A DNA stretch of 64,000 nt from Escherichia coli (GTDB lineage Bacteria; Pseudomonadota; Gammaproteobacteria; Enterobacterales; Enterobacteriaceae), in the NCBI RefSeq assembly GCF_044324785.1, contig NZ_CP172127.1; one strand, 5' to 3'. The notes under the pieces are model-generated. The model worked only from the letters and a program-made list of their open reading frames with translations. It made no database searches and was not told the origin of the DNA. Below, one piece after another: positions 1 through 24,393 of this stretch (positions are counted from its first letter, which is position 1; the number at the start of each line of letters is the position of its first letter). The translations under genes were made by a program, and so were the position numbers.

Positions 1-1
1 T

Positions 2-538
2 CATCGCATACAGCTATCATGGTATGCGCGGAATACTGCTGGCAGTACGAACGCGTATAACTATTTCGCGCTATCGAGTGATCCAGACGTTTTGTCTGCT
101 CAGGCATACGGCCCCCCCGTGACCCAACCTGGATACGTCGATATGTATGTCCTGTCGCGAACCGGCGACGGCACTCCGCCTCAATCACTACTGAATACAG
201 TTAATGCAGCGCTGTCTCCTGATGACACCCGACCGCTAACCGATTTCGTTACAGTAAAACCTGCGTCGAACCTGAATTACCGGGTTGAGGCCGTTATCGT
301 AGCGGGGCTCGGTCCCGACCAGAACGTGTTGCTCGACGGTGCTCAGAGCGATTTAGCTATATACGTGGCTACACAACATAAAATCGGGGCGACGGCAGCT
401 CTGTCGGGAATTTACGATGCGATACACCGTGACGGCACTGAGCGTGTGATTCTGATATCGCCAACAGAGGATGTGATCGCTGGCGTCGGACAGGCCCCGC
501 ACTGCACAGAAATCAAACTCAGCGTGCAAATGGGGTAG
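2..538 (+). CDS. Baseplate assembly protein J-like, C-terminal part (truncated by window start)
   Basis: Reading frame is open from position 2 with no upstream stop; sits immediately upstream of the gpI-like gene as in P2. Assignment is by position and general resemblance only. Confidence 0.5.
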   Translation, partial: HRIQLSWYARNTAGSTNAYNYFALSSDPDVLSAQAYGPPVTQPGYVDMYVLSRTGDGTPPQSLLNTVNAALSPDDTRPLTDFVTVKPASNLNYRVEAVIVAGLGPDQNVLLDGAQSDLAIYVATQHKIGATAALSGIYDAIHRDGTERVILISPTEDVIAGVGQAPHCTEIKLSVQMG

Positions 539-540
539 CC

Positions 541-1167
541 ATGACAAGTCAAAGCGTACTGCCTCCGAACGCAATAACCCCCGAGAGAGCGCTGGAATCT
601 GTTTTATCTCACGTTGGCGATCTGCCTGGCGATATTCGAATTATTAAAAATCCCGATTTGTGTCCTGCAAATCTGTTGCCGTGGCTGGCGTGGGAATACG
701 CCGTCACCTACTGGAACCCCGACTGGAGCGAGCAGCAAAAACGCGAAATTATTAAAGCAGCTGCGTGGCAGAACAAGCACCGCGGAACGCGTGGAGCTGT
801 TGAACGAGCGTTATTAACAGTTGGATTTGAGAGCAAAATGAGAGAGTGGTTTGAAGCCACGCCGAGGGACGACCCGTATACATTCGCAATTAAAATATAT
901 CTGCTAAAAAGTATAGGGTTAGATTTAGAGCTATTGAATACATTTATAGCGCAAATATTTGATGCAAAAAATTGTCGTTCATTATTAAAGGAAATAAATT
1001 TCGAAACGGGTGTCGATGGTGAGTTTTTTATAGCCGGTACACCTTACGCGAAAATAGACGTAAACGTCCCAGCAGACGGCGACGGCGGTGTAAAAATTAA
1101 CGGCGGGCTATATATATCGGGCTCACCAATTGTTAGTTTAAATGTGGAGATAGGGCCAAATGGCTGA
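541..1167 (+). CDS. Phage tail/baseplate protein I-like
   Basis: 208-aa ORF between the J-like and H-like genes; start is 2 nt after the J stop and it overlaps the H start. Confidence 0.55.
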   Translation: MTSQSVLPPNAITPERALESVLSHVGDLPGDIRIIKNPDLCPANLLPWLAWEYAVTYWNPDWSEQQKREIIKAAAWQNKHRGTRGAVERALLTVGFESKMREWFEATPRDDPYTFAIKIYLLKSIGLDLELLNTFIAQIFDAKNCRSLLKEINFETGVDGEFFIAGTPYAKIDVNVPADGDGGVKINGGLYISGSPIVSLNVEIGPNG

Positions 1168-2284
1168 AAATAAAATTTACGCAGTACTGACAGACCGTGG
1201 CGCACAACTCGAGGCCGCTGCCCTGGCGTCAGGCGTTCCAGTGGTGCTGAACAAATTTGTTATCGGTGACGCGAACGGAAACGACGATGTAACACCAGAC
1301 CCTGCACGAACAGCATTAATTCACGAGACGTATCGCGGTGATATTAAATCGTCAGAAAATAGCGGTAATCAGGTTATTTTTACGCTATACGTACCACCGG
1401 AAACCGGCGGCTATACTATCCGCGAAGTGGGAATACTGACAGATAAAGGTGAACTGTACTCTGTAGCGCGTTCGCCGGATATTTTAAAACCCACGGACAG
1501 TAACGGCGCGCTGATTTCAATCACGTATAAATACACTCTCGCGGTGTCCAGCACCTCTACAGTTAATGTTGTAGTATATGACAACTACGTAACTCCCGAA
1601 GCAGCTGACAAAAAATATTTGCAGATAAGTAAAAACTTATCTGAAATTTCCGCAAATGGTGAAACTGCTCAGCAGGCTGCGCGGAAAAATATTGGTATAG
1701 ATGGGGATGTTGCATATAGAGATAAGAGTAATACATTTACAACTCAAAACACTTTCAAAGACGATGTTTTTTTTGAAGATATTTTGATTTCTAAAAAACA
1801 AATAAATATAAATAAACCAGATACCAACTTGACATTATTTTCGCTTGCGGGCTGGTCAGATGTGAGCGGTGATTATTTAGAAGTGTCGACGCGGGGGGGA
1901 AATAATCAAAACGTTTTTTATAGATTACGCGGAATTCACTATGACGGCCTGGTGTTACTGTGCGGCGGGCAGACGTATAAATATTGGAATGAGGGAAATC
2001 TTAAACCGGTTAAAACGATTAACGGGAAGTCCCCAGACGCTAACGGGAACGTCGCAATAACAGTAAGTAGCTCAGGGATACAGAACGTCCAGCTTGGCGC
2101 AGAGGTTGCTCACACACCGGCGAGTAATGAGGTTACGTGGGACTTTAAATGTCCGACCGGCTGTGTTCTTACTGGGATATATGTTCAGGAAACCGGCGAC
2201 AGCTCAGCTGATAATATCGGCGGTGTTTATTATAAACCGATCCAAAAATACATTAATAATGTATGGACTACGATTTCCGGATGA
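1160..2284 (+). CDS. Tail fiber protein, P2 gpH-like (short, 374 aa)
   Basis: N-terminal region (LIHETYRGD...YVPPETGGYTIREVGILTD) and C-terminal motif (YYKPIQKYINNVWTTISG) resemble the conserved ends of P2 gpH as I remember it; the central region is AT-rich. Confidence 0.7.
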   Translation: MAENKIYAVLTDRGAQLEAAALASGVPVVLNKFVIGDANGNDDVTPDPARTALIHETYRGDIKSSENSGNQVIFTLYVPPETGGYTIREVGILTDKGELYSVARSPDILKPTDSNGALISITYKYTLAVSSTSTVNVVVYDNYVTPEAADKKYLQISKNLSEISANGETAQQAARKNIGIDGDVAYRDKSNTFTTQNTFKDDVFFEDILISKKQININKPDTNLTLFSLAGWSDVSGDYLEVSTRGGNNQNVFYRLRGIHYDGLVLLCGGQTYKYWNEGNLKPVKTINGKSPDANGNVAITVSSSGIQNVQLGAEVAHTPASNEVTWDFKCPTGCVLTGIYVQETGDSSADNIGGVYYKPIQKYINNVWTTISG

Positions 2285-2287
2285 GTT

Positions 2288-2866
2288 ATGCAAAATTTAA
2301 AATCATTTAAGCTTGTAAAACCTAAAACGAAATTACTTAAACTTAGCGAGTCTGACGGACAAAATGTTTTGTATCTTCAGTCCGAAGACGGCCTGGATTG
2401 GTATGAATGCCAGTCACTGTATCGCGATGACACAGTAAAAATAATGTACGACAAAGAAAACATTATTCGATCAGTTGTTGATCGCCCGGTCCCGGAGCGA
2501 GGAAATACCTATTCTGTGAGCATGTTTTTCCCGATTGATATGAGTGTTACGGAGGTTGAGTTGAGCACATATCCTTCTGAGCTAACTCTCGACGGATCGT
2601 GGAAATTTGTTGACGGTGATGTATATCAAGATGAGCTCATTGTAAATGAGCGTATTTACAAAGAAAACTCCAAAAAAATTAATGAATTAGTCCGAGAGGC
2701 TCAGTCAGCAATTCTAAATTTACAAACGGCCATAGAGATTGATATTTCATCAGATGGTGATGAGGAAAAATTAATAGAATGGCGACGGTACCTGTGCGCG
2801 CTGAATAAAATAACAGCCACGGATCTGAGTCAGTCCCCACTTAACACGCCTTTACGACCAGCATAA
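2288..2866 (+). CDS. Tail fiber assembly chaperone (Tfa/gpG-like)
   Basis: 192-aa ORF immediately downstream of the fiber gene; AT-rich; position is typical of a Tfa. Confidence 0.55.
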   Translation: MQNLKSFKLVKPKTKLLKLSESDGQNVLYLQSEDGLDWYECQSLYRDDTVKIMYDKENIIRSVVDRPVPERGNTYSVSMFFPIDMSVTEVELSTYPSELTLDGSWKFVDGDVYQDELIVNERIYKENSKKINELVREAQSAILNLQTAIEIDISSDGDEEKLIEWRRYLCALNKITATDLSQSPLNTPLRPA

Positions 2867-2878
2867 ATAGGGTACCTA

Positions 2879-4384
2879 ATGAGCACTAATTTTTTACACG
2901 GTATTCGCACGCTCGAATACGACGACGGCACAAAAGAGATTAGCACGGTAGATATTTCAGTTATCGGGATTGTTGGTACTGCACCGGATTCCGCGCAATC
3001 AACCAGTTCCGAGTTAATAACAGGGAGTGCTATTTTAAAAAACCGCCTGAAATTCACGGCGACGGGACAGGGGGTGAACGGCAATTCATGGAGCGTAGAG
3101 ATTCTCGAAACCGATCCGGACGGCTGCACGGCACTGTGGAGTGATATGCCCGACGGGAGTCGACGTTTATCAATATCAGTCGCACCGGCATCCGGCTCGC
3201 ACGGATACACCCCAGCAGAAATCGTGCAGGCAGTCACAATAGCAAACCCGCCTCCGGACCAATTATTTTTAACAATTACGGCAGTAGATGTCGAGGAGGA
3301 CGCGGGAAATGTGACTGCCTCACCGTTGCAATATTTAAGCGGCGGCAGTGATGAGGCGTTCCCAATTAATACCCCCGTACTTGTTGCCGGGAGTCCAAAA
3401 AAATCCGCTTTACTGGGTGAGCGCGGCACGTTGCCGAAAGATATTGCCGATATTTTCAATCAGGACAACGCCTTGCTTGTTGTTGTACGAGTAAAAGATG
3501 ACAAAGACACAACAAAACAACAGCAAAATATTATCGACGGTGTCAAGCAGCTGGAAAAATCGAAACAGTTAACCGAAGTCACACCGCGTATTATTATTGC
3601 ACCAGATTTTAGCGCAATTGATGCGATAGCCGCTCAGCTTGAGGTGGCCGCAAATAAACTCCGGGGGGTGTGTTATATAGACTCTCCGCGCGCTGCTACC
3701 CCTGCAGACGTTGTGAATCGCCGGCAAAAACTCGGCGGACGTGCTGAGTTGTTGCGTCCCCGTGTTTATTCAACTAGCGACGTCGGGGGGCAATCAAGAC
3801 CGTATTCTGCCATCGCTGCTGGTTTACGAGCCAGAATTGATAATGAAAAAGGGTTTTGGTGGAGTAAGTCGAATCAAAATATTTATGGAATAACAGGGCT
3901 TGAGCAGGTTGATGATTTCATTATTGGCGAGACAAACTGCACAGCGAACCTGCTGAACGCTAGTCAGGTCAGCACCATCATTCGCTATGACGGATTCCGA
4001 CATTGGGGTAACTATCTGTGCAGCCTGGATCCGCAATGGTCGTTTGAATGCGTTCGTCGAACAGCTGACGTAATTGAGGATTCTATAGCCCGGGCAATGA
4101 TGACCGATTTTATTGATCGCCCGATAGACCTGCATCTCGGAACAGACGTTGTCGAGTCGATAAACGCGTATCTGCATAAATTAGAGGAGCAGGGTGCGAT
4201 TAACGGAGGGCGTGCGTGGTTAGACGGTGAGCTGAATACAAAAGAAAGTCTGGCCGCTGGCAATCTTTATATTAATGTTGATTTTGGTCCGAAATCTCCG
4301 GCACAAACAATTACGTTAATGTACCGCATTAATAATGACTATACAGTTGAAGCACTAGCCTCACTTTTTAAAGAAACAGCCTGA
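2879..4384 (+). CDS. Contractile tail sheath protein (gpFI-like)
   Basis: 501 aa; the N-terminal region (HGIRTLEYDDGTKEISTV...IGIVGTA) and later ...RYDGFRHWGN... resemble the P2 FI sheath family. Confidence 0.85.
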   Translation: MSTNFLHGIRTLEYDDGTKEISTVDISVIGIVGTAPDSAQSTSSELITGSAILKNRLKFTATGQGVNGNSWSVEILETDPDGCTALWSDMPDGSRRLSISVAPASGSHGYTPAEIVQAVTIANPPPDQLFLTITAVDVEEDAGNVTASPLQYLSGGSDEAFPINTPVLVAGSPKKSALLGERGTLPKDIADIFNQDNALLVVVRVKDDKDTTKQQQNIIDGVKQLEKSKQLTEVTPRIIIAPDFSAIDAIAAQLEVAANKLRGVCYIDSPRAATPADVVNRRQKLGGRAELLRPRVYSTSDVGGQSRPYSAIAAGLRARIDNEKGFWWSKSNQNIYGITGLEQVDDFIIGETNCTANLLNASQVSTIIRYDGFRHWGNYLCSLDPQWSFECVRRTADVIEDSIARAMMTDFIDRPIDLHLGTDVVESINAYLHKLEEQGAINGGRAWLDGELNTKESLAAGNLYINVDFGPKSPAQTITLMYRINNDYTVEALASLFKETA

Positions 4385-4401
4385 TAATTCGGAGAGTAAA
4401 T

Positions 4402-4914
4402 ATGTCAGACAGCAACGCTTACCGCGCGTTTGCGCTATTCGTGCAGGGCGAACGGGTTTTAAATTGTACTGAATATACTCCTGTCGATATGAAAATAATC
4501 GAGGACGAGTTTAAAACAGGCGCGATGGATACAGCTATCACATTAGATGGCGGTATGGAGAAAATGTCAGCCAGTTTTAAAGTTTCGGGTTCTGATTCTG
4601 GTGTTATGAGCTATTTCGGGTTAATACCGGGAGTCAAGACGCGGTTTGAAATTCGTAGTGCGTACACAGACTCCTATGGAATAAATTTTGAGCGTATTGA
4701 TACCTACGAGGGACTTATTACGGCAATCACTGATGACGCTCAGGGGACTGATTCAAAATCGTCAGTGGGGCAATCAGTAACGATTGCGCCGAGCTATTAT
4801 AAACGAGTTCAAAATGGACGAATTATTTACGAAATTCATCCTGCAAAAATGAAACGCGTTATCAACGGTGTTGATGTTCTTGCGGGCGTCGCTCGAATCC
4901 TTCATGTATATTAA
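4402..4914 (+). CDS. Tail tube protein (gpFII-like)
   Basis: 170 aa immediately after the sheath gene; size and position match FII. Confidence 0.8.
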   Translation: MSDSNAYRAFALFVQGERVLNCTEYTPVDMKIIEDEFKTGAMDTAITLDGGMEKMSASFKVSGSDSGVMSYFGLIPGVKTRFEIRSAYTDSYGINFERIDTYEGLITAITDDAQGTDSKSSVGQSVTIAPSYYKRVQNGRIIYEIHPAKMKRVINGVDVLAGVARILHVY

Positions 4915-4926
4915 AAGGTAAGTAAA

Positions 4927-5208
4927 ATGGAATCCTTATTAGACAGTATGACTATTACGCTCTCTCGACCGTTTATTATTAAGGGCGAGAGCTGCGATAC
5001 AATTACTATTCGCGAACCCAAATTACGCGACCGCATTATGTTCAGTAACGATAAAAGCAGTCTTGAAGAGCGGACAGCGACAATGCTGGCGCGCCTGGCA
5101 AATCTGGAAAGAGAGGATTTATATGCGCTCCCCGCGTGCGATTACGATCAACTGGAGGCCGCGTTTAACGAACTGGTAAAGCACCCGAAAGACCGACATC
5201 AGATATAG
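4927..5208 (+). CDS. Tail assembly chaperone (gpE-like); possible -1 frameshift extension E' to 5288
   Basis: 93-aa ORF between tube and tape measure. The -1 frame is open from 5169 to a TAA at 5286-5288. Confidence 0.55.
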   Translation: MESLLDSMTITLSRPFIIKGESCDTITIREPKLRDRIMFSNDKSSLEERTATMLARLANLEREDLYALPACDYDQLEAAFNELVKHPKDRHQI

Positions 5209-5316
5209 TTATTCTGATTCCGTTTATTGCGAAAAAACTTGCCATCCCGCCTGATACGCAAATGGACCTGCCGTATCGGGTTTTTAATTTCTATGTAGAC
5301 GAGGTCATGAAAACCG

Positions 5317-6957
5317 ATGGCTATTTCTCAAAACTTTAAAACGCAGGTTGTATTCGGGGGGCGAATAGACCCGTCGTTTCGGCGCGGTACAACAGAACTC
5401 AACGACGCCATTCGGCAGACGTCGTCTACTGTCGGAAAATTAACGAAAAGCCAGGATAAATTAAAAGACAAAATCGCAGCAATGAAACTGGCAGGTAAAG
5501 ATGTCTCTGATTTATCTGCTCAATATCAAAAGCTGGACCGTCGGATAAAGGCGACAACGCAGGACCAGGAGGCGCTGAATACCCAGCTTGCTAAAAAACA
5601 GCGGCTGGAGAAGTGGACGGGGCGCGCAAAAGGTGCTGCAAAATGGGGCGGACGAGCCGCCGCAGGTGCGGTGAGGGCCACGGGACGGGGTATCAAATGG
5701 GGGACGCTGGGGGCCGTGGGTCTGCTCGGCGGCGCGGCTGCTGGCGCGCTGGCAATGAATGCAGAGACGTCAGAAAAACTCGGTCTGGCGAAGTCCTACG
5801 GTGTTGGCATCGAAAAATACGCTGCGTGGGAAAATATTGGTAAAGCTGCGGGCCTGAACGGCGAAAATGTTGGTGACCTGTCAGAAGAACTTACAAATAA
5901 AATCGGCGAAATCGGAAACGAAAAAAACCTGAACCCCATGTTGTTTCAAATTGGCTTGACAAAAAAACGGATGGCTAAATGGGATCGAGAAAAACAGTTC
6001 AATGAAGTTATGCGGCGTATCTCTGAAATGAAGGATGATCAACAGGCGGCGAGTCTGGCTGATCAGCTAATGGGGGGAGAGGCTAATAAAATAATGACCT
6101 ATATGCGGGCGACTGGTAAAAGCTGGGAGCAGACTATGTCGGACGCTCAAAAATCAAACCTGCTAACGAAAGAAGGGGCTGAGGGTGCAGCGCGCGCGCA
6201 CGTATCCGTCACGAATCTGTGGGGGGCAATCACATCGGGGCTGGCAGATACTCTCGGCAAAATCGGAGGGGAACTCGCGCCGACGTTTGACGCTATGCGA
6301 GACGGGCTGGCATCCTGGTTTAAAGAGAATCAAGGGGGGGTTGTTGATAGTATTAAAGAATGGGTTAAGCCAGAAAATATGAAAAAACTTTGGGAGGGGA
6401 TAGTCAGTTTTGGCGAGGCGTGCGTTAAATTCGGAAAAATAATTTGGGCAGTCGTAAAAAAACTGGAGTGGTTAATCCCGGACGAGAAAACAGACGAGGA
6501 ACAGCGCGTATATAACGAAGAATATAATAAAGCGTATCAGGAATTCATGGATAGTGGTGGTAAATATTCACCGAACCCAGGACTGGCAGCAGATAATGTA
6601 GCAAAAGCAAAAGCCGACGAAGCCGTGGATAATATGCGACACCCTGAACGTCTTGCTCGTGCAAAATCACAGGCTGAATCAATGCTCTCGTTTGCTAACC
6701 CGTTTACTGGATTAATAAATAAAGACTCAACGCCTGAATCACAAAACTCAGCAACGTTGAATATTGACGCGCTGAGACAGGCAGTCGCAACTCCAGCGCC
6801 AGAGCAAAACAATAAAATTGAAATCAATATTATCGGAGCAGCAGATCCACAATCAACACAGCAGGCTGCCGCATCGGGTGTGCTCGACGGGCTGAGACAG
6901 GTTGCGAGTTCGTACAATCGTGGTGCAATGTTTGATAAACCAGCGGCGGCGGGGTGA
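5317..6957 (+). CDS. Tail tape measure protein (gpT-like)
   Basis: 546 aa, with an N-terminal coiled-coil-like region and a Gly/Ala-rich stretch (GRAAAGAVRATGRG...GLLGGAAAGALA); position after E. Confidence 0.8.
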   Translation: MAISQNFKTQVVFGGRIDPSFRRGTTELNDAIRQTSSTVGKLTKSQDKLKDKIAAMKLAGKDVSDLSAQYQKLDRRIKATTQDQEALNTQLAKKQRLEKWTGRAKGAAKWGGRAAAGAVRATGRGIKWGTLGAVGLLGGAAAGALAMNAETSEKLGLAKSYGVGIEKYAAWENIGKAAGLNGENVGDLSEELTNKIGEIGNEKNLNPMLFQIGLTKKRMAKWDREKQFNEVMRRISEMKDDQQAASLADQLMGGEANKIMTYMRATGKSWEQTMSDAQKSNLLTKEGAEGAARAHVSVTNLWGAITSGLADTLGKIGGELAPTFDAMRDGLASWFKENQGGVVDSIKEWVKPENMKKLWEGIVSFGEACVKFGKIIWAVVKKLEWLIPDEKTDEEQRVYNEEYNKAYQEFMDSGGKYSPNPGLAADNVAKAKADEAVDNMRHPERLARAKSQAESMLSFANPFTGLINKDSTPESQNSATLNIDALRQAVATPAPEQNNKIEINIIGAADPQSTQQAAASGVLDGLRQVASSYNRGAMFDKPAAAG

Positions 6958-7382
6958 CAATGAGTGATGCAATAAACGGTGCTGAGGATATCATGCTCGG
7001 TTTGGGTGATTTCATTTTTGCTATATCAACAGTAGCGTACAACAAACTGCAACGTAGTGACGCCTGGCGCTGGGCTCAGCAAACACGATTCGGGAAAAAC
7101 GACGCATTGCAGATAACCGGACGACCGAACCCCACAATCACGATCGATGGGAAAATAAACGCGTTATTCCTTGATGGGTGCGGCATTGGCTTGTTAACAG
7201 ATTTGCGGGCACTGGGGAACTCGGGAGAACCCCAGCAACTGGTGCTGGGGACCGGGGAGGTGAAGGGGTACTGGGTTATCAGGGAGTTAACAGAAACGCA
7301 AAACAGTTTTCTGAAAGGAGGGACCCCAAAATCGCAGGACTTTTCACTCACGCTCGAATATTATGGAGCTTCGCTAGATTAA
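6954..7382 (+). CDS. Tail protein gpU-like
   Basis: 142 aa, overlaps the tape-measure stop (ATGA); position. Confidence 0.6.
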   Translation: MTMSDAINGAEDIMLGLGDFIFAISTVAYNKLQRSDAWRWAQQTRFGKNDALQITGRPNPTITIDGKINALFLDGCGIGLLTDLRALGNSGEPQQLVLGTGEVKGYWVIRELTETQNSFLKGGTPKSQDFSLTLEYYGASLD

Positions 7383-7544
7383 TACAAAATCAAGCGCTAC
7401 CAGAGCACTTAACAAGTATAAAAATAATAAAAAAAACTACGAGCATAAATGTAAAACAACCTGATGGTATTTTTTTTTGACGCCGAAATACTAATACCTC
7501 TCCGACTACTAAAATTAATTCTCATTATGAAATCCTTTTAATTA

Positions 7545-7769
7545 ATGGGGCCCCAAATGATTACATACACTACACGGGACGGTGACCGTCTCGATCAGAT
7601 CTGCCTTGCTGTCTACGGGAGAACAGCAAAAACGACAGAAACCGTGTTATATCAGGTTTTAAATTACGGCGTAACGGATATGTGTGCCGTGTTTCGTGCA
7701 GGAGAAAAAATTGTTTTACCAGAAATCGACCCCGAACCGGCTAAAAAAGAAACGCAATTATGGGATTGA
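7545..7769 (+). CDS. Tail protein X-like (LysM-like); a start at 7557 (MITYT...) is also possible
   Basis: Sequence ...DRLDQICLAVYGRT...ETVLYQVLNYGV...AGEKIVLPEI... resembles P2 gpX as I remember it. Confidence 0.65.
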   Translation: MGPQMITYTTRDGDRLDQICLAVYGRTAKTTETVLYQVLNYGVTDMCAVFRAGEKIVLPEIDPEPAKKETQLWD

Positions 7770-7772
7770 TGA

Positions 7773-8816
7773 ATGAGTGATTACGTAAATACTGGCGTGG
7801 AAGCATGGAAGCCCAATTTTTATATATCTGCTGATAATGAAAACATCACGGATAAAATAAGAAAAGGTTTGATCAATATCACGCTCACAGATTATGGTGG
7901 TTCGAGTAAACAGACAGACGAATTACGCGTAGCAATCGTTTCTGAAACTCTGAAAATTCCGGCCCGCGGAGTAAAAATCAGTATTGGGCTCGGTTTCGGT
8001 AATCAGATAATTGATAAGGGTGTATACATCGTTGATGGTGCGAGCAGTGGCGGTGAACCCCGGGTAGTTGATTTCACAGCAAAAGCAGCTCCGATGAACG
8101 CATCAAAAGGCTCTCCGACAGTTCAGAGCAAAAAAACTCGCTCCTGGAGCGACGTCACTGTCAGCAATATCGTTGCAACAATAGCGAGCGATAACGGGCT
8201 AAAACCTCGCGTATCAAAGCGGTTTGCAGACAACATTATCACGCAGCTCGATCAAGTCGGCGAGTCAGATATGCACCTGATGTCGCGGCTCGCAACGAGA
8301 TTCGATGCGGTGAGTAAACCCGCGGGCGGGTACTGGATATTCCTGCCGCGCGGCGCGGGCGAATCTGTTAGCGGAGCACCGCTTCAGCACTACACGCTCA
8401 CGCGTCGTGATAACTCAAGCTGGGGTTATTCGAGAAATGGACAAAACGGTGATAGTGGCGGAGGTGGCGAAAATGCGGAGCCAACGTATTTGATCAAATA
8501 TCACGATACAGCAACGGGGCAGATCAAAGAATTGCGTACGGGCAGTGGCGGCGATCCTGTAATCGAGTGGCCGGCAGTGGAGCCGTCGCTTGATGCAGCG
8601 AAAGAAGCTGCGCCAGGACTCAAGGGCGGTGCAGCTAAAAAAGAGTTCTCCATGACTTACACGACGCCCGCGACGCTCGATTTAGTATCGCTGACTGCAG
8701 AATGCAAAGTCACAACACAAGGATTCGGGACAGAGGAGGACCGAGACTGGACAATCAATACGTTGACGCTGACGCTGGCTGAAAACGGATTCTCTGCGCG
8801 ACTGTCGCTGGAGTAA
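7773..8816 (+). CDS. Tail protein D-like
   Basis: 347 aa immediately after the X-like gene, as in R-type pyocin/phiCTX-like clusters. Confidence 0.65.
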   Translation: MSDYVNTGVEAWKPNFYISADNENITDKIRKGLINITLTDYGGSSKQTDELRVAIVSETLKIPARGVKISIGLGFGNQIIDKGVYIVDGASSGGEPRVVDFTAKAAPMNASKGSPTVQSKKTRSWSDVTVSNIVATIASDNGLKPRVSKRFADNIITQLDQVGESDMHLMSRLATRFDAVSKPAGGYWIFLPRGAGESVSGAPLQHYTLTRRDNSSWGYSRNGQNGDSGGGGENAEPTYLIKYHDTATGQIKELRTGSGGDPVIEWPAVEPSLDAAKEAAPGLKGGAAKKEFSMTYTTPATLDLVSLTAECKVTTQGFGTEEDRDWTINTLTLTLAENGFSARLSLE

Positions 8817-8821
8817 ATGAA

Positions 8822-10648
8822 ATGGCAATAATATCGGGTGTATACGCAAATGGGGTCGGCGAGCCCGTTGTCGGCGTTCAGTTAGTATTAACAGCACGGG
8901 TCACGAGTTCACGCGTAGTAATGACCACTGTTGTAGAGCAAGAAACAGGCGCGGCGGGTGAGTACAAATTTGATATGAAGCCCGGAGTTTACGTTGTCAC
9001 TGCTAGTGCGGCATATCTCGGCGTGATTAACGTTAACCCGGACAGTGTTGACGGCACGTTAAACGACTATTTGACTAATTTTAGCGCAGACGAACTGACG
9101 CCAGCTGCGTTGGCGGAGATCCAGGAACTCGTTGCCACAGCACAAGCCGCTGCCAGTGTTGCCAGCGCCGCCGCAACGGAGGCCAGGCAGAATGCCGCCG
9201 CCGCCGCTGCTGCTGCGCAGATTTCGACGGCAGCGGCAGGGAGCGCCAGATTTGAGAATTTTGACGAAATTATCAATGTCAATACAACAGCAATGCTGGA
9301 GCTGGAAAAACCGGAGGTGTTAGATCCGGATATTGCAATAACTATCACAGAGACGATTAATTATAACTATATTGGCCCGGTAAACGGATTTTGCGACGTT
9401 ACTAGCCCGCTTGAATATAAAATTCAAATGTACGCCTACACAACAGGCGAATATTTTAACGGCGAAACAAATTTAACAGCGGACGGGAAGTTTTCTTTTA
9501 AACGTTCCTGGGCTGGTGCAAAACAATTCAGATTGGTGCGCGTAGCAGATAGTAAATGGATCACTACGCTGGAATACCCGCTGTGTATTCGCAGTTACTG
9601 GATGCCCGCTGACGCCGATCCCGAGGTAGTCAGCGTCATGAAAGACCGTTGCTACACATATGATCAGGCGTGCGCGGCGCTGGCTCTCATGGCGCAGAAT
9701 CACGAGGCGGTAGAGCGTTATGTTACGGGTCTGTGCGCCCTGGTGGGTGAAAACGGCGGCATTAAATTTTTTGTTAACCGGCTGTCCGCACAGTCCTCCC
9801 GCGAATATTACCGCACGGGTAACGCGGCGTGGGTGTTGTACGCCCTGGCATTCTATCTGAGCAAATACCCTACCGGCAGTAACGCTGAGTTAGCGCGCGC
9901 GAAATTAAACGCCGGGCTAACCTGGCTGGACGGTCTGAAGGTTGACGCCAGCGGCGACCCGCGCCACGGCTTATACATGGGCGGCAACGGTAAATATCTG
10001 GAGGACGGATCATTTGATCCGAATTATGTTGCGACCTGGTGCGCGCTCGAGCACAACGTTGATATTTATTTTTTATTCGAACTCGTTGGACGGTTAACCG
10101 ATTTTACCGGATACGAACTGCGAGCCACCACGCTGGCTGCAAATATCGTGGAAAAATTCTGGATTGAGAGCGAGGGGCGATTCCGGCAGGGCGTGCACAT
10201 TGACGGCCCGGACAACGCCGCAGCGCTGGATCAATCGAGTTGGGGCGGGATATTCGCAGTAAAAGCCGCGCCGGAGTTGGCGGAAAAATGCCGCCGTTAT
10301 ATGGAAAGATTCCGGTTCGGCACACTGGAGAGCACCGGTTATACACCGTATCACCCGGACTACGGATACAGCGGCCATAGCCGTGGCGTGTGGACCGAGG
10401 GTACAGCGGGTGTAGCACTATTCGAACGTGCGCTAGGGAACGAGCAGAGAGCTACCGATCTGATCGCGGGATTAAAACCACTGCGTAATGAATACGGCTA
10501 TCGCGACTCATGCGACGATAAAAAATACGACACACTGCCGGACTGGCCGTCGACTACAAACACCGCTTGGGTTATTTTAACATGCAAGCCGGCGGGGTTT
10601 TGGTGCGTAGATTTCCCGGTATTGGACGTTGGTATCGTCAGGTACTGA
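8822..10648 (+). CDS. Side-tail-fiber-like protein: lambda Stf-like N-terminal domain, Ala-rich linker, and an unassigned ~400-aa C-terminal domain
   Basis: N-terminus MAIISGVYANGVGEPVVGVQLVLTARV...GEYKFDMKPGVYVV...GTLNDYL parallels the lambda Stf N-terminus. An AAAAAAAAQISTAAAG stretch follows, then a Trp/Tyr-rich globular region with no transmembrane or signal sequence. Confidence 0.6.
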   Translation: MAIISGVYANGVGEPVVGVQLVLTARVTSSRVVMTTVVEQETGAAGEYKFDMKPGVYVVTASAAYLGVINVNPDSVDGTLNDYLTNFSADELTPAALAEIQELVATAQAAASVASAAATEARQNAAAAAAAAQISTAAAGSARFENFDEIINVNTTAMLELEKPEVLDPDIAITITETINYNYIGPVNGFCDVTSPLEYKIQMYAYTTGEYFNGETNLTADGKFSFKRSWAGAKQFRLVRVADSKWITTLEYPLCIRSYWMPADADPEVVSVMKDRCYTYDQACAALALMAQNHEAVERYVTGLCALVGENGGIKFFVNRLSAQSSREYYRTGNAAWVLYALAFYLSKYPTGSNAELARAKLNAGLTWLDGLKVDASGDPRHGLYMGGNGKYLEDGSFDPNYVATWCALEHNVDIYFLFELVGRLTDFTGYELRATTLAANIVEKFWIESEGRFRQGVHIDGPDNAAALDQSSWGGIFAVKAAPELAEKCRRYMERFRFGTLESTGYTPYHPDYGYSGHSRGVWTEGTAGVALFERALGNEQRATDLIAGLKPLRNEYGYRDSCDDKKYDTLPDWPSTTNTAWVILTCKPAGFWCVDFPVLDVGIVRY

Positions 10649-10676
10649 CAATTATAATTTTTGGAGTTTTTTATAC

Positions 10677-11096
10677 ATGGTCGTTAAAAATATTCTTGCC
10701 TTTGGGATTATGTGTGCGCTTGCTGGTTGTGCAACCAAGCCAGTCTCAAACGAGCAGGCTACTCCCGTTCCAGAAAAACAGGTAATCAATAGCGCAATAC
10801 TCGAAAAAAGAGATGGGACAGGAGAGGTGATCATCAAGCGTGATTCGGGTTTCTTTGGGAGCGCGTGCTTTTCCCGTGTTTATGTTGATGGTAAAGAGGT
10901 GGCAGATTTAGGTACAGCTCAGAAAGTCGTTGTATACCCAACGATTGGTGATCATGTCTTCAGCGCGTGGCCAAAAGGAGTATGTGGTGGTGGCATGAGT
11001 GAGCAGGCGGGCAAGGTGACAACAGATCGTACTTTGATGTATCGCATAGGTTACGGTTCAAACGGTGAATATGGCATTCACCCAACTGCGTTTTAA
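10677..11096 (+). CDS. Small predicted outer-membrane lipoprotein (prophage cargo)
   Basis: GGAG about 10 nt upstream of the ATG at 10677. Signal peptide MVVKNILAFGIMCALAGC with lipobox LAGC; the residue after Cys is Ala (not an Asp inner-membrane retention signal); several Cys in the mature part. Confidence 0.55.
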   Translation: MVVKNILAFGIMCALAGCATKPVSNEQATPVPEKQVINSAILEKRDGTGEVIIKRDSGFFGSACFSRVYVDGKEVADLGTAQKVVVYPTIGDHVFSAWPKGVCGGGMSEQAGKVTTDRTLMYRIGYGSNGEYGIHPTAF

Positions 11097-11253
11097 CTGT
11101 GTTGGGTATGCGATTTTATTCGCATACCCCTTAGGGCAATTGACGATACTTCCAAATGACCATTATTTTACGTGTGGCCTCGATGTTGCGCACATGAGAG
11201 TTCTATATTCTTTCAAACAGGATTATCCCATTGATTTAATTATACTTTCGTAT

Positions 11254-11314
11254 GGTCTCGAAAACCGGAGTAGGGGCAACTCTACCGGGGGTTCAAATCC
11301 CCCTCTCTCCGCCA
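11254..11314 (+). repeat. Partial 3' copy (61 nt) of tRNA-Ser(CGA), serU-like; putative prophage attR
   Basis: GGTCTCGAAAACCGGAGTAGGGGCAACTCTACCGGGGGTTCAAATCCCCCTCTCTCCGCCA matches the anticodon-stem-to-CCA part of E. coli serU as I remember it. The upstream sequence does not match the tRNA 5' half. Confidence 0.8.
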
Positions 11315-11860
11315 CTTTATCAATGACTTATCTCCCGACTTCCCGCCTTGCTTTTCCTAAACAGAACAATCGTAGAATATTCTTGAAGGGTTAGATCGTC
11401 ACTGTTTTCTGTTCGATACTGTGACATTCAGCACTTGATTCGCTATGGATCTGACAGGAAGGTTTCGAGCGAAAATCTGCAGTTATTCAGTCGTTTTCTT
11501 ATCGCTCACCATTATTCTTTTAGACATTCATCCTATGAAACTGCCGCAAAGTTGGTGGTGGGAACTGAAGTTGCGTAGAGAAGGGGGCAATAATTGAGCC
11601 AAAAAAGGAACGCGGCCGTCAGATTAAAGCCGCGGGACAAAGTCCATAATTTCCAAGAGTTGTTGAATTTCCCAGCTTTTTTGAAAGCCTTTGTATCATA
11701 CTAACAAGTAAAAAAGGTTTAAATACCAAAATTAACCTATATTTCTGGTTAGCTTTACCATGACAGATGACTTGCTTCTGGAGACATTGGCGCTGCCAGT
11801 CTGTATTGGTGAGTTGTGTATTTATTGTTCGCCGCTTTCTCGGTTTTTTTCTACAGACAT

Positions 11861-11894
11861 AATAAAAAAGACACGTCTCAAGCATGAGCGTGTC
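11861..11894 (-). terminator. Rho-independent terminator downstream of zinT
   Basis: Hairpin GACACGTCTCA-AGCA-TGAGCGTGTC, followed on the minus strand by a T-run. Confidence 0.6.
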
Positions 11895-11983
11895 TGAGTT
11901 TGTTTTATTTATTTGTCTTGGTAAATTATTGTCGTTACTACCAGGCACTGTTCTGTTAAATAATTGAAGTCAGCGCAAAAAAA

Positions 11984-12634
11984 TCAATGAGACATCATCT
12001 CCTCGACCACTTCTTCGCTACTCAACTGATAGGGATAATACGTTGGCCAGTTTTCCATTTCATTTAATAAAGATTGCTGTGAATCATTACCCATAAAAAT
12101 GTGAAAATGAGATGATTTTCGTGGTGCAATTATATGATCGCTAAATTGAATATATTTAGGGGCTTTGCTTTCAGGATCTTTACATTCGAATAAGTAACGA
12201 ACGCCTTTCTTGCCTGATTTATAGGTGAGTATTTTGTATCCATCATAATCATATTTACAGGATGTTGTTTCATTATTTCTATGGAATTCAACAATGCCGT
12301 CCTCAATGCCAATCATCTCGATATCTGTCACATAACCTTTGCGATAATAATCTTTAATTTCAGCAAATGTTTTAGTTTTATCTGCATCCGCTTTCTTCTG
12401 AAAGACGGGGTCAAGTTTGCCACTTTGCAGTAAAGGATAAACGGATTGCCAGACTCCATCCCAGTCACTGAGCGTTCGGTTTTGTACATTGGCATCATCA
12501 AAAACACCATTAGCAGCTTTTTGTTCGACCTCTGTTAAGGGTTTGCCGTGTGAGTGATGACCATGCGAAAAGGCAGGAGCGCTAACAATAAAGACACCTA
12601 AAGCAACAGCCAGTTTATGAAGACGAATCGCCAA
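11984..12634 (-). CDS. zinT: Zinc/cadmium-binding periplasmic protein ZinT (YodA)
   Basis: 216 aa with signal peptide and His-rich HGHHSHG motif; recognised as E. coli ZinT. Confidence 0.9.
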
Positions 12635-21614: not shown

Positions 21615-23033
21615 ATGCAGGAAAATATATCAGTAACCGATTCATACAGCACCGGGAATGCCGCACAGGCAATGCTGGAGAAACTGCTGCAAATTTATGA
21701 TGTTAAAACGCTGGTGGCGCAGCTTAATGGTGTGGGTGAGAATCACTGGAGCGCGGCAATTTTAAAACGTGCGCTGGCGAATGACTCGGCATGGCACCGT
21801 TTAAGTGAGAAAGAGTTCGCCCATCTGCAAACGTTGTTACCCAAACCACCGGCACATCATCCGCATTATGCGTTTCGCTTTATCGATCTATTTGCCGGAA
21901 TTGGCGGCATCCGTCGCGGTTTTGAATCGATTGGCGGACAGTGCGTCTTTACCAGCGAATGGAACAAACATGCGGTTCGCACTTATAAAGCCAACCATTA
22001 TTGCGATCCGGCGACGCATCATTTTAATGAAGATATCCGCGACATCACCCTCAGCCATAAAGACGGCGTGAGTGATGAGTCGGCGGCAGAACATATTCGT
22101 CAACACATTCCTGAACACGATGTATTACTGGCCGGTTTTCCTTGTCAGCCATTTTCGCTGGCTGGCGTATCGAAAAAGAACTCGCTCGGGCGGGCGCACG
22201 GTTTTGCCTGCGATACCCAGGGCACGCTGTTCTTTGATGTGGTGCGCATTATCGACGCGCGTCGTCCGGCGATGTTTGTGCTCGAAAACGTCAAAAACCT
22301 GAAAAGTCACGATAAAGGAAAAACGTTCCGCATCATCATGCAGACGCTGGACGAACTGGGCTATGACGTGGCTGATGCAGAAGATAACGGGCCAGACGAT
22401 CCGAAAATCATCGACGGCAAACATTTTCTGCCGCAGCACCGTGAACGCATCGTGCTGGTGGGTTTTCGTCGCGATCTGAATCTGAAAGCCGATTTTACCC
22501 TGCGTGATATCAGCGAATGTTTTCCTGCGCAGCGAGTGACGCTGGCCCAGCTGCTGGACCCGATGGTCGAGGCGAAATATATCCTGACGCCGGTGCTGTG
22601 GAAGTACCTCTATCGATATGCGAAAAAACATCAGGCGCGCGGTAACGGCTTCGGTTATGGAATGGTTTATCCGAACAATCCGCAAAGCGTCACGCGTACG
22701 TTGTCTGCGCGTTATTACAAAGATGGCGCAGAAATTTTAATCGATCGCGGCTGGGATATGGCAACGGGTGAGAAAGACTTTGACGATCCGCTGAATCAGC
22801 AACATCGCCCACGTCGGTTAACGCCTCGGGAATGCGCGCGTTTAATGGGGTTTGAAGCGCCGGGAGAAGCGAAATTCCGCATTCCGGTTTCGGACACTCA
22901 GGCCTATCGCCAGTTCGGTAACTCGGTGGTCGTACCGGTCTTTGCCGCGGTGGCAAAACTGCTTGAGCCAAAAATCAAACAGGCGGTGGCGTTGCGTCAG
23001 CAAGAGGCACAACATGGCCGACGTTCACGATAA
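21615..23033 (+). CDS. dcm: DNA-cytosine C5-methyltransferase Dcm
   Basis: 472 aa with the F-G-G motif ([11 protein letters not shown]), PCQ catalytic motif ([11 protein letters not shown]) and ENV motif (FVLENVKNL). Confidence 0.95.
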
Positions 23034-23484
23034 GGCCACACGCAGCAAAAATATGCGCGCGATTGCCACGCGTGATACGGCGATTGAGAAGCGCCTCGCC
23101 AGTTTGTTAACCGGGCAGGGACTGGCGTTTCGCGTTCAGGACGCGGATCTCCCCGGACGCCCGGATTTTGTCGTTGATGAATATCGCTGCGTGATATTTA
23201 CCCACGGCTGCTTCTGGCACCATCATCACTGCTATCTGTTTAAAGTGCCTGCGACTCGAACCGGGTTCTGGCTGGAGAAGATAGGTAAAAATGTTGAGCG
23301 CGATCGCCGCGATATCAGTCGCTTGCAGGAACTCGGCTGGCGCGTATTGATTGTCTGGGAGTGTGCGTTACGTGGGCGCGAGAAGCTGACGGATGAAGCG
23401 CTTAGCGAGCGTCTGGAAGAGTGGATCTGCGGCGAAGGAGCCAGCGCGCAGATCGACACGCAGGGGATTCATTTACTCGCTTGA
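23014..23484 (+). CDS. vsr: Very-short-patch repair endonuclease Vsr
   Basis: 156 aa starting [17 protein letters not shown]...; its 5' end overlaps the dcm 3' end in another frame, the classic dcm-vsr arrangement. Confidence 0.9.
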
Positions 23485-24393
23485 TGCGTCCTGAATAACG
23501 GGCGCAACTACGGGTTTGGCCGGGAAGAGATATTTTCCCAACGTGACCAGTACCACCGCGAAGACAATCACGCCGAGCGCCAGCCATTCAATCTTCGACA
23601 GCGTCTCTCCGCCCAGTCCCGTACCCAGCAAGACCGCGACCACAGGGTTAACGTAGGCGTAGCTGGTGGCGAGAGCCGGACTGACGTTGCGGATTAAATA
23701 CATATAAGCGTTAATGGCGATAATCGAACCAAACAGCGCCAGATAGCCGACCGCAAGGAAGCCTGAAAGGGAAGGGAGCGCCGTCAGTTTTTCACCCGCA
23801 ATCATCGACGCGATCATTAACACCACGCCTGCCGCAAGCATCTCAATCGCACCCGCCATCATCCCTACAGGTAAGGTAATGCGCGAGCCATAAACTGAGC
23901 CAAACGCCCAGCTAATCGAGCCGATTAAAATCAGAATCGCGCCCCACGGATTGCCGCTTAAATTTCCACCGCTATTGAGCATGATGATTCCGGCAAGTCC
24001 AATGGCGATACCCACCCATTCCAGTTTGCGCGTTTTAATGCCAAACAGGCGGCTGAAGCACAGGGTAAAGAGGGGCACGGTTGCAACCACTACGGCGGCG
24101 ATGCCGGAAGGAACATTTTGATGTTCGGCAACCGTTACCATGCCATTACCGACAGCCAGCAATAACAGGCCAATCAGCGCGGCATTGAGCAGCGGACGTA
24201 GCGGGGGGAGCTTGTGTCCGCGCAGTAGCAAAAATGCCAGCAATAAAATACCGGCTGCCAGGAATCGCACGCCCGCCATCATTAACGGCGGCCAGCTTTC
24301 CACGCCAATCCGAATGACAAAATAGGTTGAGCCCCAAATGATATACAACGCAAACAGCGCGCCAAAAAGCGGTAACAACTGGCGGAAACGCAT
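23473..24393 (-). CDS. yedA: EamA-family (DMT) transporter YedA
   Basis: 306-aa polytopic membrane protein; position. Confidence 0.85.
   Translation of the reverse strand: MRFRQLLPLFGALFALYIIWGSTYFVIRIGVESWPPLMMAGVRFLAAGILLLAFLLLRGHKLPPLRPLLNAALIGLLLLAVGNGMVTVAEHQNVPSGIAAVVVATVPLFTLCFSRLFGIKTRKLEWVGIAIGLAGIIMLNSGGNLSGNPWGAILILIGSISWAFGSVYGSRITLPVGMMAGAIEMLAAGVVLMIASMIAGEKLTALPSLSGFLAVGYLALFGSIIAINAYMYLIRNVSPALATSYAYVNPVVAVLLGTGLGGETLSKIEWLALGVIVFAVVLVTLGKYLFPAKPVVAPVIQDASSE

Follow-up and report, generated by a model that had tools for sequence, protein, structure and literature searches.

The first 11,330 nucleotides (1–11330) of the window, which is the whole 64,000-nucleotide stretch of Escherichia coli DNA analyzed here, most probably make up the right-hand end of a temperate lambdoid prophage, some 47.7 kb long, that is integrated at serU and carries a P2-type contractile tail, a reading drawn from sequence to which we assign a probability of about 0.9. 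Such a prophage would combine control, lysis, packaging, and head genes of the lambda type with a contractile tail of the P2 type. The window matches the lambdoid P2-tail group represented by vB_EcoM-569R10 and the serU prophage of strain E24377A, in which the order int-cI/cro-replication-Q-lysis-lambda-type head is followed by V-W-J-I-H-sheath-tube-E-T-U-X-D, the whole lying at a tRNA gene; the tail and attR are seen in the window itself, and the remainder in contigs that are 100% identical to it. The gene order U-X-D in the tail places the element outside Peduoviridae, and does not imply that it is a tailocin. The tail cluster belongs to a prophage family that is widespread in E. coli and draws on both lambda-type and P2-type modules. 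This family is ordinary in E. coli and already known and catalogued, the U-X-D block being found in 452 of 5426 complete E. coli genomes (about 8%).

The U-X-D Block

Three same-strand ORFs at 6954–8816 encode U, X, and D in this order, and the arrangement proposed in the initial annotation is therefore real (PF06995, 1e-32; PF05489, 8e-16; phrog_52, 1e-92). The first (6954–7382, plus strand) encodes a gpU-family protein, a putative baseplate centerpiece or tube initiator, which matches PF06995 Phage_P2_GpU at 112.8 bits, above the Pfam gathering cut-off of 27.5, and phrog_76 at 1.9e-50. Its start codon is GTG at 6954, and an ATG at 6960 yields the 140-aa form that is called in public assemblies. 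Residues 19–141 of the window protein align to residues 158–287 of R2-pyocin PA0626 (1.6e-14). The alignment thus covers no more than the last 130 residues of PA0626 (290 aa), whose large N-terminal part the 140-aa gpU lacks, so that the two are not full-length equivalents.

The second ORF (7545–7769, plus strand) encodes gpX, a small baseplate protein of the LysM type (PF05489 Phage_tail_X, 8.2e-16; 57.8 bits, above the Pfam gathering cut-off of 22; phrog_46, 5.1e-21). An ATG at 7557 yields a 70-aa form, which is the one that aligns with homologs. The protein matches the NMR structure of P2 gpX (2ltf) at 3e-8 and the R2-pyocin “glue” protein PA0627 at 1.3e-5, and probably has the LysM fold. 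The third ORF (7773–8816, plus strand) encodes a gpD-type baseplate hub, which matches phrog_52 at 1.1e-92 and the R2-pyocin hub chain 6u5h_C at 2.4e-22. Its score against PF05954 Phage_GPD (1.9e-4, 21.1 bits) is below the gathering cut-off of 30.1; despite this, its predicted identity as a gpD-type hub is secure through phrog_52 and the R2-pyocin hub. It shares 26–30% identity with the D proteins of P2, phiCTX, and 186 across most or all of its length, and its orthologs are named “phage late control protein” or “VgrG/Pvc8 family” by PGAP. Judged by these scores, the family assignments of U, X, and D lie far beyond chance.

Solved structures that explain the roles of U, X, and D are supplied by R2 pyocin, in which the hub is PA0628 (PMC10811340), and in PDB 6u5b the chains are named PA0626 (gpU-like) and PA0627 (gpX-like). 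In Milano, PVC, and Afp, the LysM protein (the ortholog of T4 gp53 and PA0627) is the C-terminal domain of the centerpiece (PMC10811340). T-U-X-D is the terminal tail block, and, judged from the homologous structures of R2 pyocin and Milano, it would encode the parts of the baseplate center, namely the tape measure T, the gpU centerpiece or tube initiator, the LysM “glue” gpX, and the gpD hub. D and V would form a hub–spike complex in which the gpD hub carries the gpV spike; U would cap the hub and start the tube around T; and X may tie the W/J/I wedges to the baseplate center.

The Remaining Tail Genes and the Right Prophage End

The genes upstream of U are all encoded on the plus strand and are collinear with a P2-type tail module (the 3′ part of J, I, an H-like fiber, a chaperone, sheath, tube, E, T). 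The start of the window cuts the baseplate gene J, the 3′ part of which occupies 1–538 (PF04865 Baseplate_J, 3.4e-12); the complete gene (306 aa) lies at 9078–9998 of the identical contig L008, corresponding to window positions −382 to 538. It is followed by genes for a gpI-type baseplate protein (541–1167; PF09684 Tail_P2_I, 2.9e-37), a gpH-like tail fiber of 374 aa whose C-terminal part varies among relatives (1160–2284; PF12571 Phage_tail_fib, 3.1e-30), and a tail-fiber assembly chaperone (2288–2866; PF02413 Caudo_TAP, 5.4e-17). The 501-aa tail sheath (2879–4384) matches PF04984, PF17482, and phrog_23 (1.4e-106) as well as the R2-pyocin sheath PA0622 (5.7e-47), and precedes the tail tube (4402–4914; PF04985 Phage_tube, 8.3e-22). 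The tail assembly chaperone E with a putative E′ extension occupies 4927–5339 (E itself, 4927–5208; PF10109 Phage_TAC_7, 2.6e-16), the −1 frame being open at 5169–5339, from inside E to an overlap with the start of T. The tape measure protein T (5317–6957, 546 aa) takes its assignment from its place between E/E′ and U; it matches phrog_3654 (6.3e-249), a Pfam search of T returned no match, and the protein shares 34% identity with the protein at the same position in phages Chris1 and yong2.

Downstream of D, the annotated genes are a fiber gene and a lipoprotein gene, followed by attR, and an Ogr/B-type activator is not among them. The second tail fiber (8822–10648, plus strand, 608 aa) has an N-terminal domain of the lambda Stf type (PF08400, 5.1e-25; phrog_13714, 1.4e-214), and its C-terminal 408 aa have no Pfam match even at E ≤ 5. 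It has the first ~104 aa in common with the 336-aa version of E24377A, and the remainder differs. The lipoprotein gene at the prophage end (10629–11096, plus strand; phrog_890 “lipoprotein,” 6.6e-52) is present in public assemblies as a 139-aa form at 10677–11096. A promoter-like site is located at 10629–10658, at the start of this ORF. NCBIfam gave no matches for U, X, D, T, the 608-aa fiber, or the lipoprotein.

The attR site (11254–11330, plus strand) spans 77 bp, duplicates the 3′ end of tRNA-Ser (serU) together with 16 further nt, and is 100% identical to L020:1145–1221, a segment that overlaps an intact tRNA-Ser(CGA) gene located at L020:1116–1205 beside the integrase gene. attL and attR thus form a perfect 77-bp repeat; ARAGORN detected no complete tRNA at attR in the window.

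Upstream Gene Content

The window begins inside J, and the head genes were read from identical contigs, from which we infer the same upstream genes for the window's own genome. Among GTDB species representatives, a 50-nt exact pattern taken from the start of the window had no match. The loci of three assemblies are 100% identical to window positions 1–11167, and that of a fourth has one mismatch. Two of the three identical loci reach upstream of J (the third ends inside J), and both of these encode TerL (GpA), gpW, a lambda-B-type portal protein (Phage_portal_2), a decoration protein (HDPD), a gpE-type capsid protein (Phage_cap_E), FI, and FII, with V, W, and J coming after the head genes; an S49 protease was called in one of the two. 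Followed further upstream, the loci contain a Q antiterminator (PF06323), holin and lysis genes, a DnaB replication module, cI/cro-like genes, the integrase gene, serU, and mtfA. Instead of the Ogr activator and gpA rolling-circle replicase of Peduoviridae, the identical contigs have this Q antiterminator and DnaB helicase. In the window as in the contigs identical to it, the structural ORFs from TerL through D all reach the full length known from relatives. The initial annotation had set its proposal against a canonical P2/186 prophage with a complete head module upstream; such a module is indeed present in the identical contigs, but it is of the lambda type and does not have canonical P2/186 synteny.

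The Position of X Among Phages and Tailocins

In P2, X is located at 6509–6712 between L and the holin gene Y, and U and D abut at 22312–23954, in agreement with the initial annotation, which put the P2 X gene in the lysis/head region; likewise in 186, X comes after L and before the lysis genes, and U adjoins D. The same annotation attributed U-X-D to phiCTX, which proved incorrect: the phiCTX X homolog is orf8, after L (orf6) and orf7, and U (orf26) adjoins D (orf27). The corresponding order is L-X-lysis in RsoM1USA and M-L-X in YO037_1 (the head-end region only for both). The attribution to R pyocins was correct, as R2 pyocin has U-X-D in the form of PA0626-PA0627-PA0628, but the order is not specific to R pyocins. 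T-U-X-D is found in ep3, Arya, Persinger, Chris1, yong2, vB_EcoM-569R10, and the E24377A prophage, and U-X-D is common to all P2-type tail modules checked outside Peduoviridae, so that the order marks an element as “not Peduoviridae” and not as “tailocin.” As complete phages also have T-U-X-D, the order is not diagnostic of an R-type tailocin.

In this census of about 15 hand-picked genomes, the position of X separates Peduoviridae (L-X-lysis) from other phages with P2-type tails and from tailocins (T-U-X-D). The placement of X between U and D thus appears to be the general layout for P2-type tails outside Peduoviridae and the P2 family the exception, the polarity of the rearrangement being our inference. 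U-X-D should not be counted as a tailocin signature; the significance of this point beyond correct annotation is small.

Known Relatives

The closest relatives are the serU prophages of E24377A and SE11 and the phages vB_EcoM-569R10, 720R5, 705R4, and 783R5, which have the same genes in the same order from terminase to D, including T-U-X-D. Their DNA is 88–97% identical to the window over most of the tail genes, and protein identities are 96–99% for U and D and 90–92% for X. Differences between the group and the window are found in the fiber genes, in the fiber that follows D, in the cassette of the U-X spacer, and in the exposed portion of the sheath, where identity to 569R10 is 71%. The E24377A copy is located at the same mtfA/serU-yodB-zinT locus as the window prophage, whereas many copies of the group adjoin yecA-tyrP instead and have a truncated D. 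Sp13 of strain Sakai, a “P2-like” prophage, was considered as a possible serU relative and set aside; serU is unmentioned in the Sakai paper.

The closest sequenced phages outside E. coli are Citrobacter phage Chris1 and Hafnia phage yong2 (unclassified temperate Caudoviricetes), with identities of 47% for the sheath, 40–42% for D, and 39–40% for U. As in the window prophage, their terminase, gpW, and portal genes are of the lambda type, their control region is of the cI/cII type, and the tail contains T-U-X-D. They differ in that the tail module is permuted (V-sheath-tube-E-T-U-X-D-W-J-I-H) and in that the head has a fused Clp-protease/capsid gene in place of separate gpC, gpD, and gpE genes. 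The Iiscvirinae/Jilinvirus phages (vB_EcoM-ep3, ECO1230-10, Arya, HeidiAbel) are myoviruses of small size whose head genes run terminase-gpW-portal and whose tail genes follow the order seen here (V-W-J-I-fibers-sheath-tube-E-T-U-X-D). These phages are more distant (sheath, ~43% over the conserved part; D, 30%; U, 35%), differ with respect to head protease/capsid fusion and genome ends, and have no temperate behavior observed.

R2 pyocin of P. aeruginosa (PA0615–PA0628) shares U-X-D and the preceding position of the sheath gene (PA0622) with the window, and is headless and chromosomally fixed. The Peduoviridae P2, 186, and phiCTX share the protein families and the J-I-H-G-FI-FII-E-T-U...D backbone, but in these phages X lies between L and the lysis genes, U is adjacent to D, Ogr/B comes after D, the head is of the P2 type (Q P O N M L), and the replicase is of the rolling-circle type, whereas the head of the window prophage, as read in the identical contigs, is of the lambda type.

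Sequence Affinity and Alternative Explanations

Affinity was compared by phmmer bit scores instead of a tree. The scores for D are 283 bits with yong2, 266 with Chris1, 129 with ep3, 103 with phiCTX, 89 with 186, 84 with P2, and 83 with R2 pyocin; those for the sheath are 457 (Chris1), 446 (yong2), 263 (ep3), 190 (phiCTX), 187 (P2), 185 (186), and 164 (R2); and those for U are 113 (Chris1), 104 (yong2), 83 (phiCTX), 68 (P2), and 57 (R2). R2 pyocin is therefore the lowest comparator for U, D, and the sheath, and for X it is among the lowest (28.5 bits). By sequence, the tail proteins show no special closeness to R2 pyocin: Chris1 and yong2 are nearest, and R2 pyocin lies as far away as P2, 186, and phiCTX. 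The tail proteins share 35–49% identity with the lambdoid myoviruses Chris1 and yong2, the closest comparators outside E. coli, vs. 26–39% with P2, 186, phiCTX, and R2 pyocin where blastp detects a homolog; E and T have no detectable blastp homolog in the first three of these.

These identities weigh against a prophage of the canonical P2/186 type (Peduoviridae) whose X gene was merely relocated into the F operon, although the order J-I-H-G-FI-FII-E-T-U-(X)-D is otherwise as in P2 and all tail proteins fall in P2-named Pfam families. With a fiber gene and not an ogr/B-type activator after D, and with a lambda-type head, Q antiterminator, and DnaB in the identical contigs in place of Q-P-O-N-M-L, Ogr, and gpA, this explanation is extremely improbable. 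It is also very unlikely that the genes are an R-type tailocin or a tail cluster without a head that has been co-opted, like R2 pyocin, to kill competitors. The agreement in gene order with PA0616–PA0628, the visibility of tail genes alone in the window, and the short tape measure (546 aa vs. 815 aa in P2) would all suit such a cluster, but the identical contigs hold terminase, portal, decoration, and capsid genes of intact length, as well as integrase, repressor, and replication genes, bounded by the perfect att repeat at the tRNA. In addition, R2 pyocin scores lowest as described above, and plaque-forming phages of the Jilinvirus group have the same gene order. The initial suggestion of “a different P2-like lineage or tailocin-like” element thus holds in that the element is not of the P2/186 type, and fails as regards a tailocin in view of the head, lysis, replication, immunity, and integrase genes of the identical contigs.

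The same hybrid prophage may instead be cryptic, a non-inducible remnant in which the tail genes are kept without infectious virions, and this is the alternative that deserves some credence, though we consider it doubtful. Many relatives bear inactivating lesions: in E24377A the portal gene contains IS21, in strain C41 T is split, and both Ecol_542 and 569R10 have a truncated D. The spacer against gpU in E. coli CRISPR arrays is evidence of past conflict, though not of present activity. In the window and the identical contigs, on the other hand, the structural ORFs are unbroken from TerL to D and both att repeats are intact.

Lineage Status and the U-X Spacer

The deposited records of the E. 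coli group are unclassified, and the nearest isolates, Chris1 and yong2, have at most 47% sheath identity. In the literature on lambda-head/P2-tail hybrids, no specific named description was found. The lambda-head/P2-tail group that integrates at serU or yecA could tentatively be an undescribed lineage of temperate myoviruses whose U-X spacer is a place where small antisense genes for membrane proteins are exchanged, a combined reading that we regard as rather unlikely. The spacer (7383–7544) is AT-rich and contains a small antisense ORF on the minus strand (7409–7525, 38 aa). It has a T9 tract; in relatives whose tract is T8, the encoded product is a peptide of 44 aa that ends in a hydrophobic tail; as part of the same speculative reading, the T8-to-T9 change would put the gene for this peptide out of frame in the window's lineage. 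In E24377A, the spacer is a different cassette, encoding a 66-aa protein annotated as “superinfection immunity protein.”

Organization of the Tail Module

By Pfam and PHROG assignment, window 1–11.3 kb is a single long plus-strand gene run. The window begins inside the baseplate gene J, the 3′ part of which (1–538) is followed by genes for gpI (541–1167), a gpH-like fibre (1160–2284), a fibre chaperone (2288–2866), a 501-aa sheath (2879–4384), the tube (4402–4914), chaperone E (4927–5208), a 546-aa tape measure T (5317–6957), gpU (6954–7382; PF06995, 1e-32), gpX (7545–7769; PF05489, 8e-16) and a gpD-type hub (7773–8816). The Pfam score of the hub is under the cut-off; its identity can be regarded as secure because of its matches to phrog_52 (1e-92) and the R2-pyocin hub chain (2.4e-22). 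Given the family assignments of U, X and hub D, the U-X-D order noticed at 6954–8816 in the initial annotation is genuine, the matches lying well outside chance expectation.

Identity of the Prophage

As the window starts inside J, assemblies encoding an exactly identical gpI protein were sought as a proxy for the upstream content. Three assemblies have loci with 100% identity across window 1–11167, and a fourth has one with a single mismatch over the same interval. One of the three identical loci ends inside J, and the upstream content was read from the other two. In both, the genes 5′ of J are, in order outward, V and W, two unassigned genes, lambda FII (Phage_attach), FI, a gpE-type capsid gene and an HDPD decoration protein gene, beyond which an S49 protease was called in one of the two; farthest in this stretch are a lambda-B-type portal, gpW and a GpA-type large terminase. 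A farther walk through GCA_019158855.2 (first step) and GCA_958309045.1/CATRGX010000003.1 (next two) reached holins, an endolysin-position gene, a Q antiterminator, DnaB, YdaS/YdaT, HTH_3 (cro/cI-like), exonuclease-side genes, a DUF4224 gene and a tyrosine integrase, and past the integrase tRNA-Ser(CGA) serU, mtfA and asnT.

The serU 3′ end by the integrase (L020:1145–1221, L020 being the integrase/serU end of the identical contig) is repeated perfectly over 77 bp at window 11254–11330. The two copies of this repeat define attL and attR; the intact serU tRNA (L020:1116–1205) adjoins the integrase at attL, and attR duplicates 77 bp from the 3′ portion of serU tRNA-Ser(CGA). The prophage is about 47.7 kb long by extrapolated coordinates. 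The upstream head and control genes of the identical contigs, together with the att repeat, identify the element as a temperate lambdoid phage carrying a P2-type tail, and the 100% identity over 11 kb indicates that the window's own genome probably shares this left part. Among GTDB species representatives, scanning for an exact sequence pattern from the window start gave no match.

The U-X-D order had been taken as a possible sign of a different P2-like lineage or of a tailocin-like element. The first part holds insofar as the element is not of the canonical P2 lineage; a P2/186 prophage is ruled out by the lambda-type head, Q antiterminator and DnaB of the identical contigs. The tailocin-like reading fails, since a headless tailocin is ruled out by the head, packaging, replication and integrase genes of the same contigs.

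The last prophage gene 5′ of attR encodes a lipoprotein (phrog_890; 10629–11096), has a promoter-like site at 10629–10658 and resembles the accessory genes commonly found at prophage ends.

Position of X Among P2-Type Tails

P2 does keep X elsewhere, as the initial annotation states: it lies at 6509–6712, between L and holin Y, and U directly adjoins D. The placement of X and the U-D adjacency are the same in 186. The U-X-D order ascribed to phiCTX in the initial annotation is mistaken: its X homologue, orf8, follows L (orf6) and orf7, and its U and D are neighbours (orf26 and orf27). By established convention, consecutive PAO1 locus tags denote adjacent genes, and because the gpU-like PA0626, gpX-like PA0627 and hub PA0628 are consecutive, R2 pyocin has U-X-D, as had been supposed. 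In PDB 6u5b, the gpU-like and gpX-like chains are named ‘Ripcord PA0626’ and ‘Glue PA0627’; the R2 hub is PA0628 (PMC10811340), and the R2 pyocin cluster spans PA0615–PA0628 (PMC1250226).

T-U-X-D is also found in Escherichia phage ep3 (Jilinvirus), Enterobacter phage Arya, Pseudomonas phage Persinger, Citrobacter phage Chris1, Hafnia phage yong2, the deposited E. coli prophage vB_EcoM-569R10 and the E. coli E24377A prophage. U-X-D is thus not special to tailocins, being present in complete phages and prophages. L-X was found in all five Peduoviridae genomes examined (P2, 186, phiCTX, RsoM1USA, YO037_1), and many further Peduoviridae agree by the annotations under X matches. The small LysM protein is orthologous to T4 gp53 and PA0627, and in Milano, PVC and Afp the LysM protein is the C-terminal domain of the centrepiece, the PA0626 equivalent (PMC10811340). 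X directly 3′ of U is the general state, because T-U-X-D occurs in non-Peduoviridae and LysM–centrepiece fusions occur in Milano, PVC and Afp; by parsimony, the P2 family would be the derived exception in X position.

Sequence Affinity of the Tail Proteins

In blastp comparisons, all window tail proteins are nearer to Chris1 and yong2 (35–49% identity) than to P2, 186 and phiCTX (26–39% or undetectable), the fibre chaperone and gpX being too short or too variable for discrimination. The phmmer bit scores for yong2, Chris1, ep3, phiCTX, P2, 186 and R2 pyocin are, respectively, 283, 266, 129, 103, 84, 89 and 83 for hub D; 446, 457, 263, 190, 187, 185 and 164 for the sheath; and 104, 113, 74, 83, 68, 58 and 57 for U. 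Because R2 pyocin scores lowest in all three, it is by this measure the farthest comparator, not the nearest. Pseudomonad tailocins have been described as without special kinship to P2 and phiCTX (Ghequire et al., PMC4684702).

Proposed Roles in the Baseplate

On the basis of homology, T, U, X and D, the final block of the tail module, would provide the baseplate centre. D is the putative hub, which with the V spike would make the central spike complex, equivalent to PA0628–PA0616 in R2 pyocin and gp27–gp5 in T4 (PMC10811340). U may be the centrepiece leading into the tube; unlike the 290-aa PA0626 of R2 pyocin, window gpU has 140 aa and matches only PA0626 residues 158–287. X would be the LysM ‘glue’ or wedge-4 protein joining wedges to the centre. 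T would fix tail length, predicted at ~80 nm for 546 aa by the quoted literature rule of ~0.15 nm per residue.

Variable Parts of the Tail Region

A −1-frame ORF (5169–5339) opens within E and overlaps the T start, as expected of the conserved E/E+E′ frameshift product, E′ being open to 5339; a canonical XXXYYYZ slippery heptamer was not visible by eye in this interval. The sheath is 71% identical overall to that of 569R10, whereas the remaining tail region matches it at ~88–92%; the N-proximal part of the sheath gene (2992–3635, residues ~38–252) has no DNA-level match to 569R10 and a 97% match to E24377A, which suggests that relatives have exchanged the extra sheath domain that the R2 sheath (386 aa) lacks. 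A second tail fibre of 608 aa (8822–10648), located 3′ of D, has a lambda Stf-type N-terminal domain (PF08400), and its C-terminal ~400 aa have no match among Pfam or PDB sequences. The 336-aa E24377A version has just the first ~104 aa in common with this fibre, and G+C is 0.53 in window 8–10 kb, within which this fibre lies, compared with ~0.46 in the surroundings.

The AT-rich U-X spacer (7383–7544) is a variable slot among relatives. In the window lineage, a T9 tract leads to a 38-aa antisense ORF (7409–7525, minus strand); in 569R10 and Ecol_542, T8 leads to a 44-aa peptide whose tail is hydrophobic; in E24377A, the slot holds an unrelated cassette whose product, a membrane protein of 66 aa, carries the annotation ‘superinfection immunity protein’.

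Distribution and Integration Loci

The U-X-D block has matches in 489 of 5426 complete E. coli genomes, with at least 80% of the block covered in 452 of the 489 and a best full-length identity of 95.6%. Most copies are ~92.5% identical, adjoin yecA-tyrP and have a truncated D; others lie at serU-yodB-zinT, the same locus as the window prophage. Such copies are routinely annotated by PGAP already, and the U-X-D feature is ordinary, public records already containing it. The chromosome flanking the prophage is 98.5% identical to E. coli.

The yecA-tyrP locus (61625–63989), with a tRNA Gly-Cys-Leu cluster and the yecA and tyrP ORFs, is unoccupied in the window and marks the second integration site, where most relatives of the prophage reside. 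In E24377A and C41, the cytochrome b gene yodB separates the prophage end from zinT; it is absent in the window, where 223 unmatched bp (11761–11984) are the sole gap between the last shared segment and zinT.

A gpU site (7151–7182), with ATG directly 5′, perfectly matches a 32-nt CRISPR spacer of E. coli strain GMF065, the one inspected among 36 records whose best match to the U-X-D query had at least 99% identity; its array is type I-E-style and lies between queE and ygcE.
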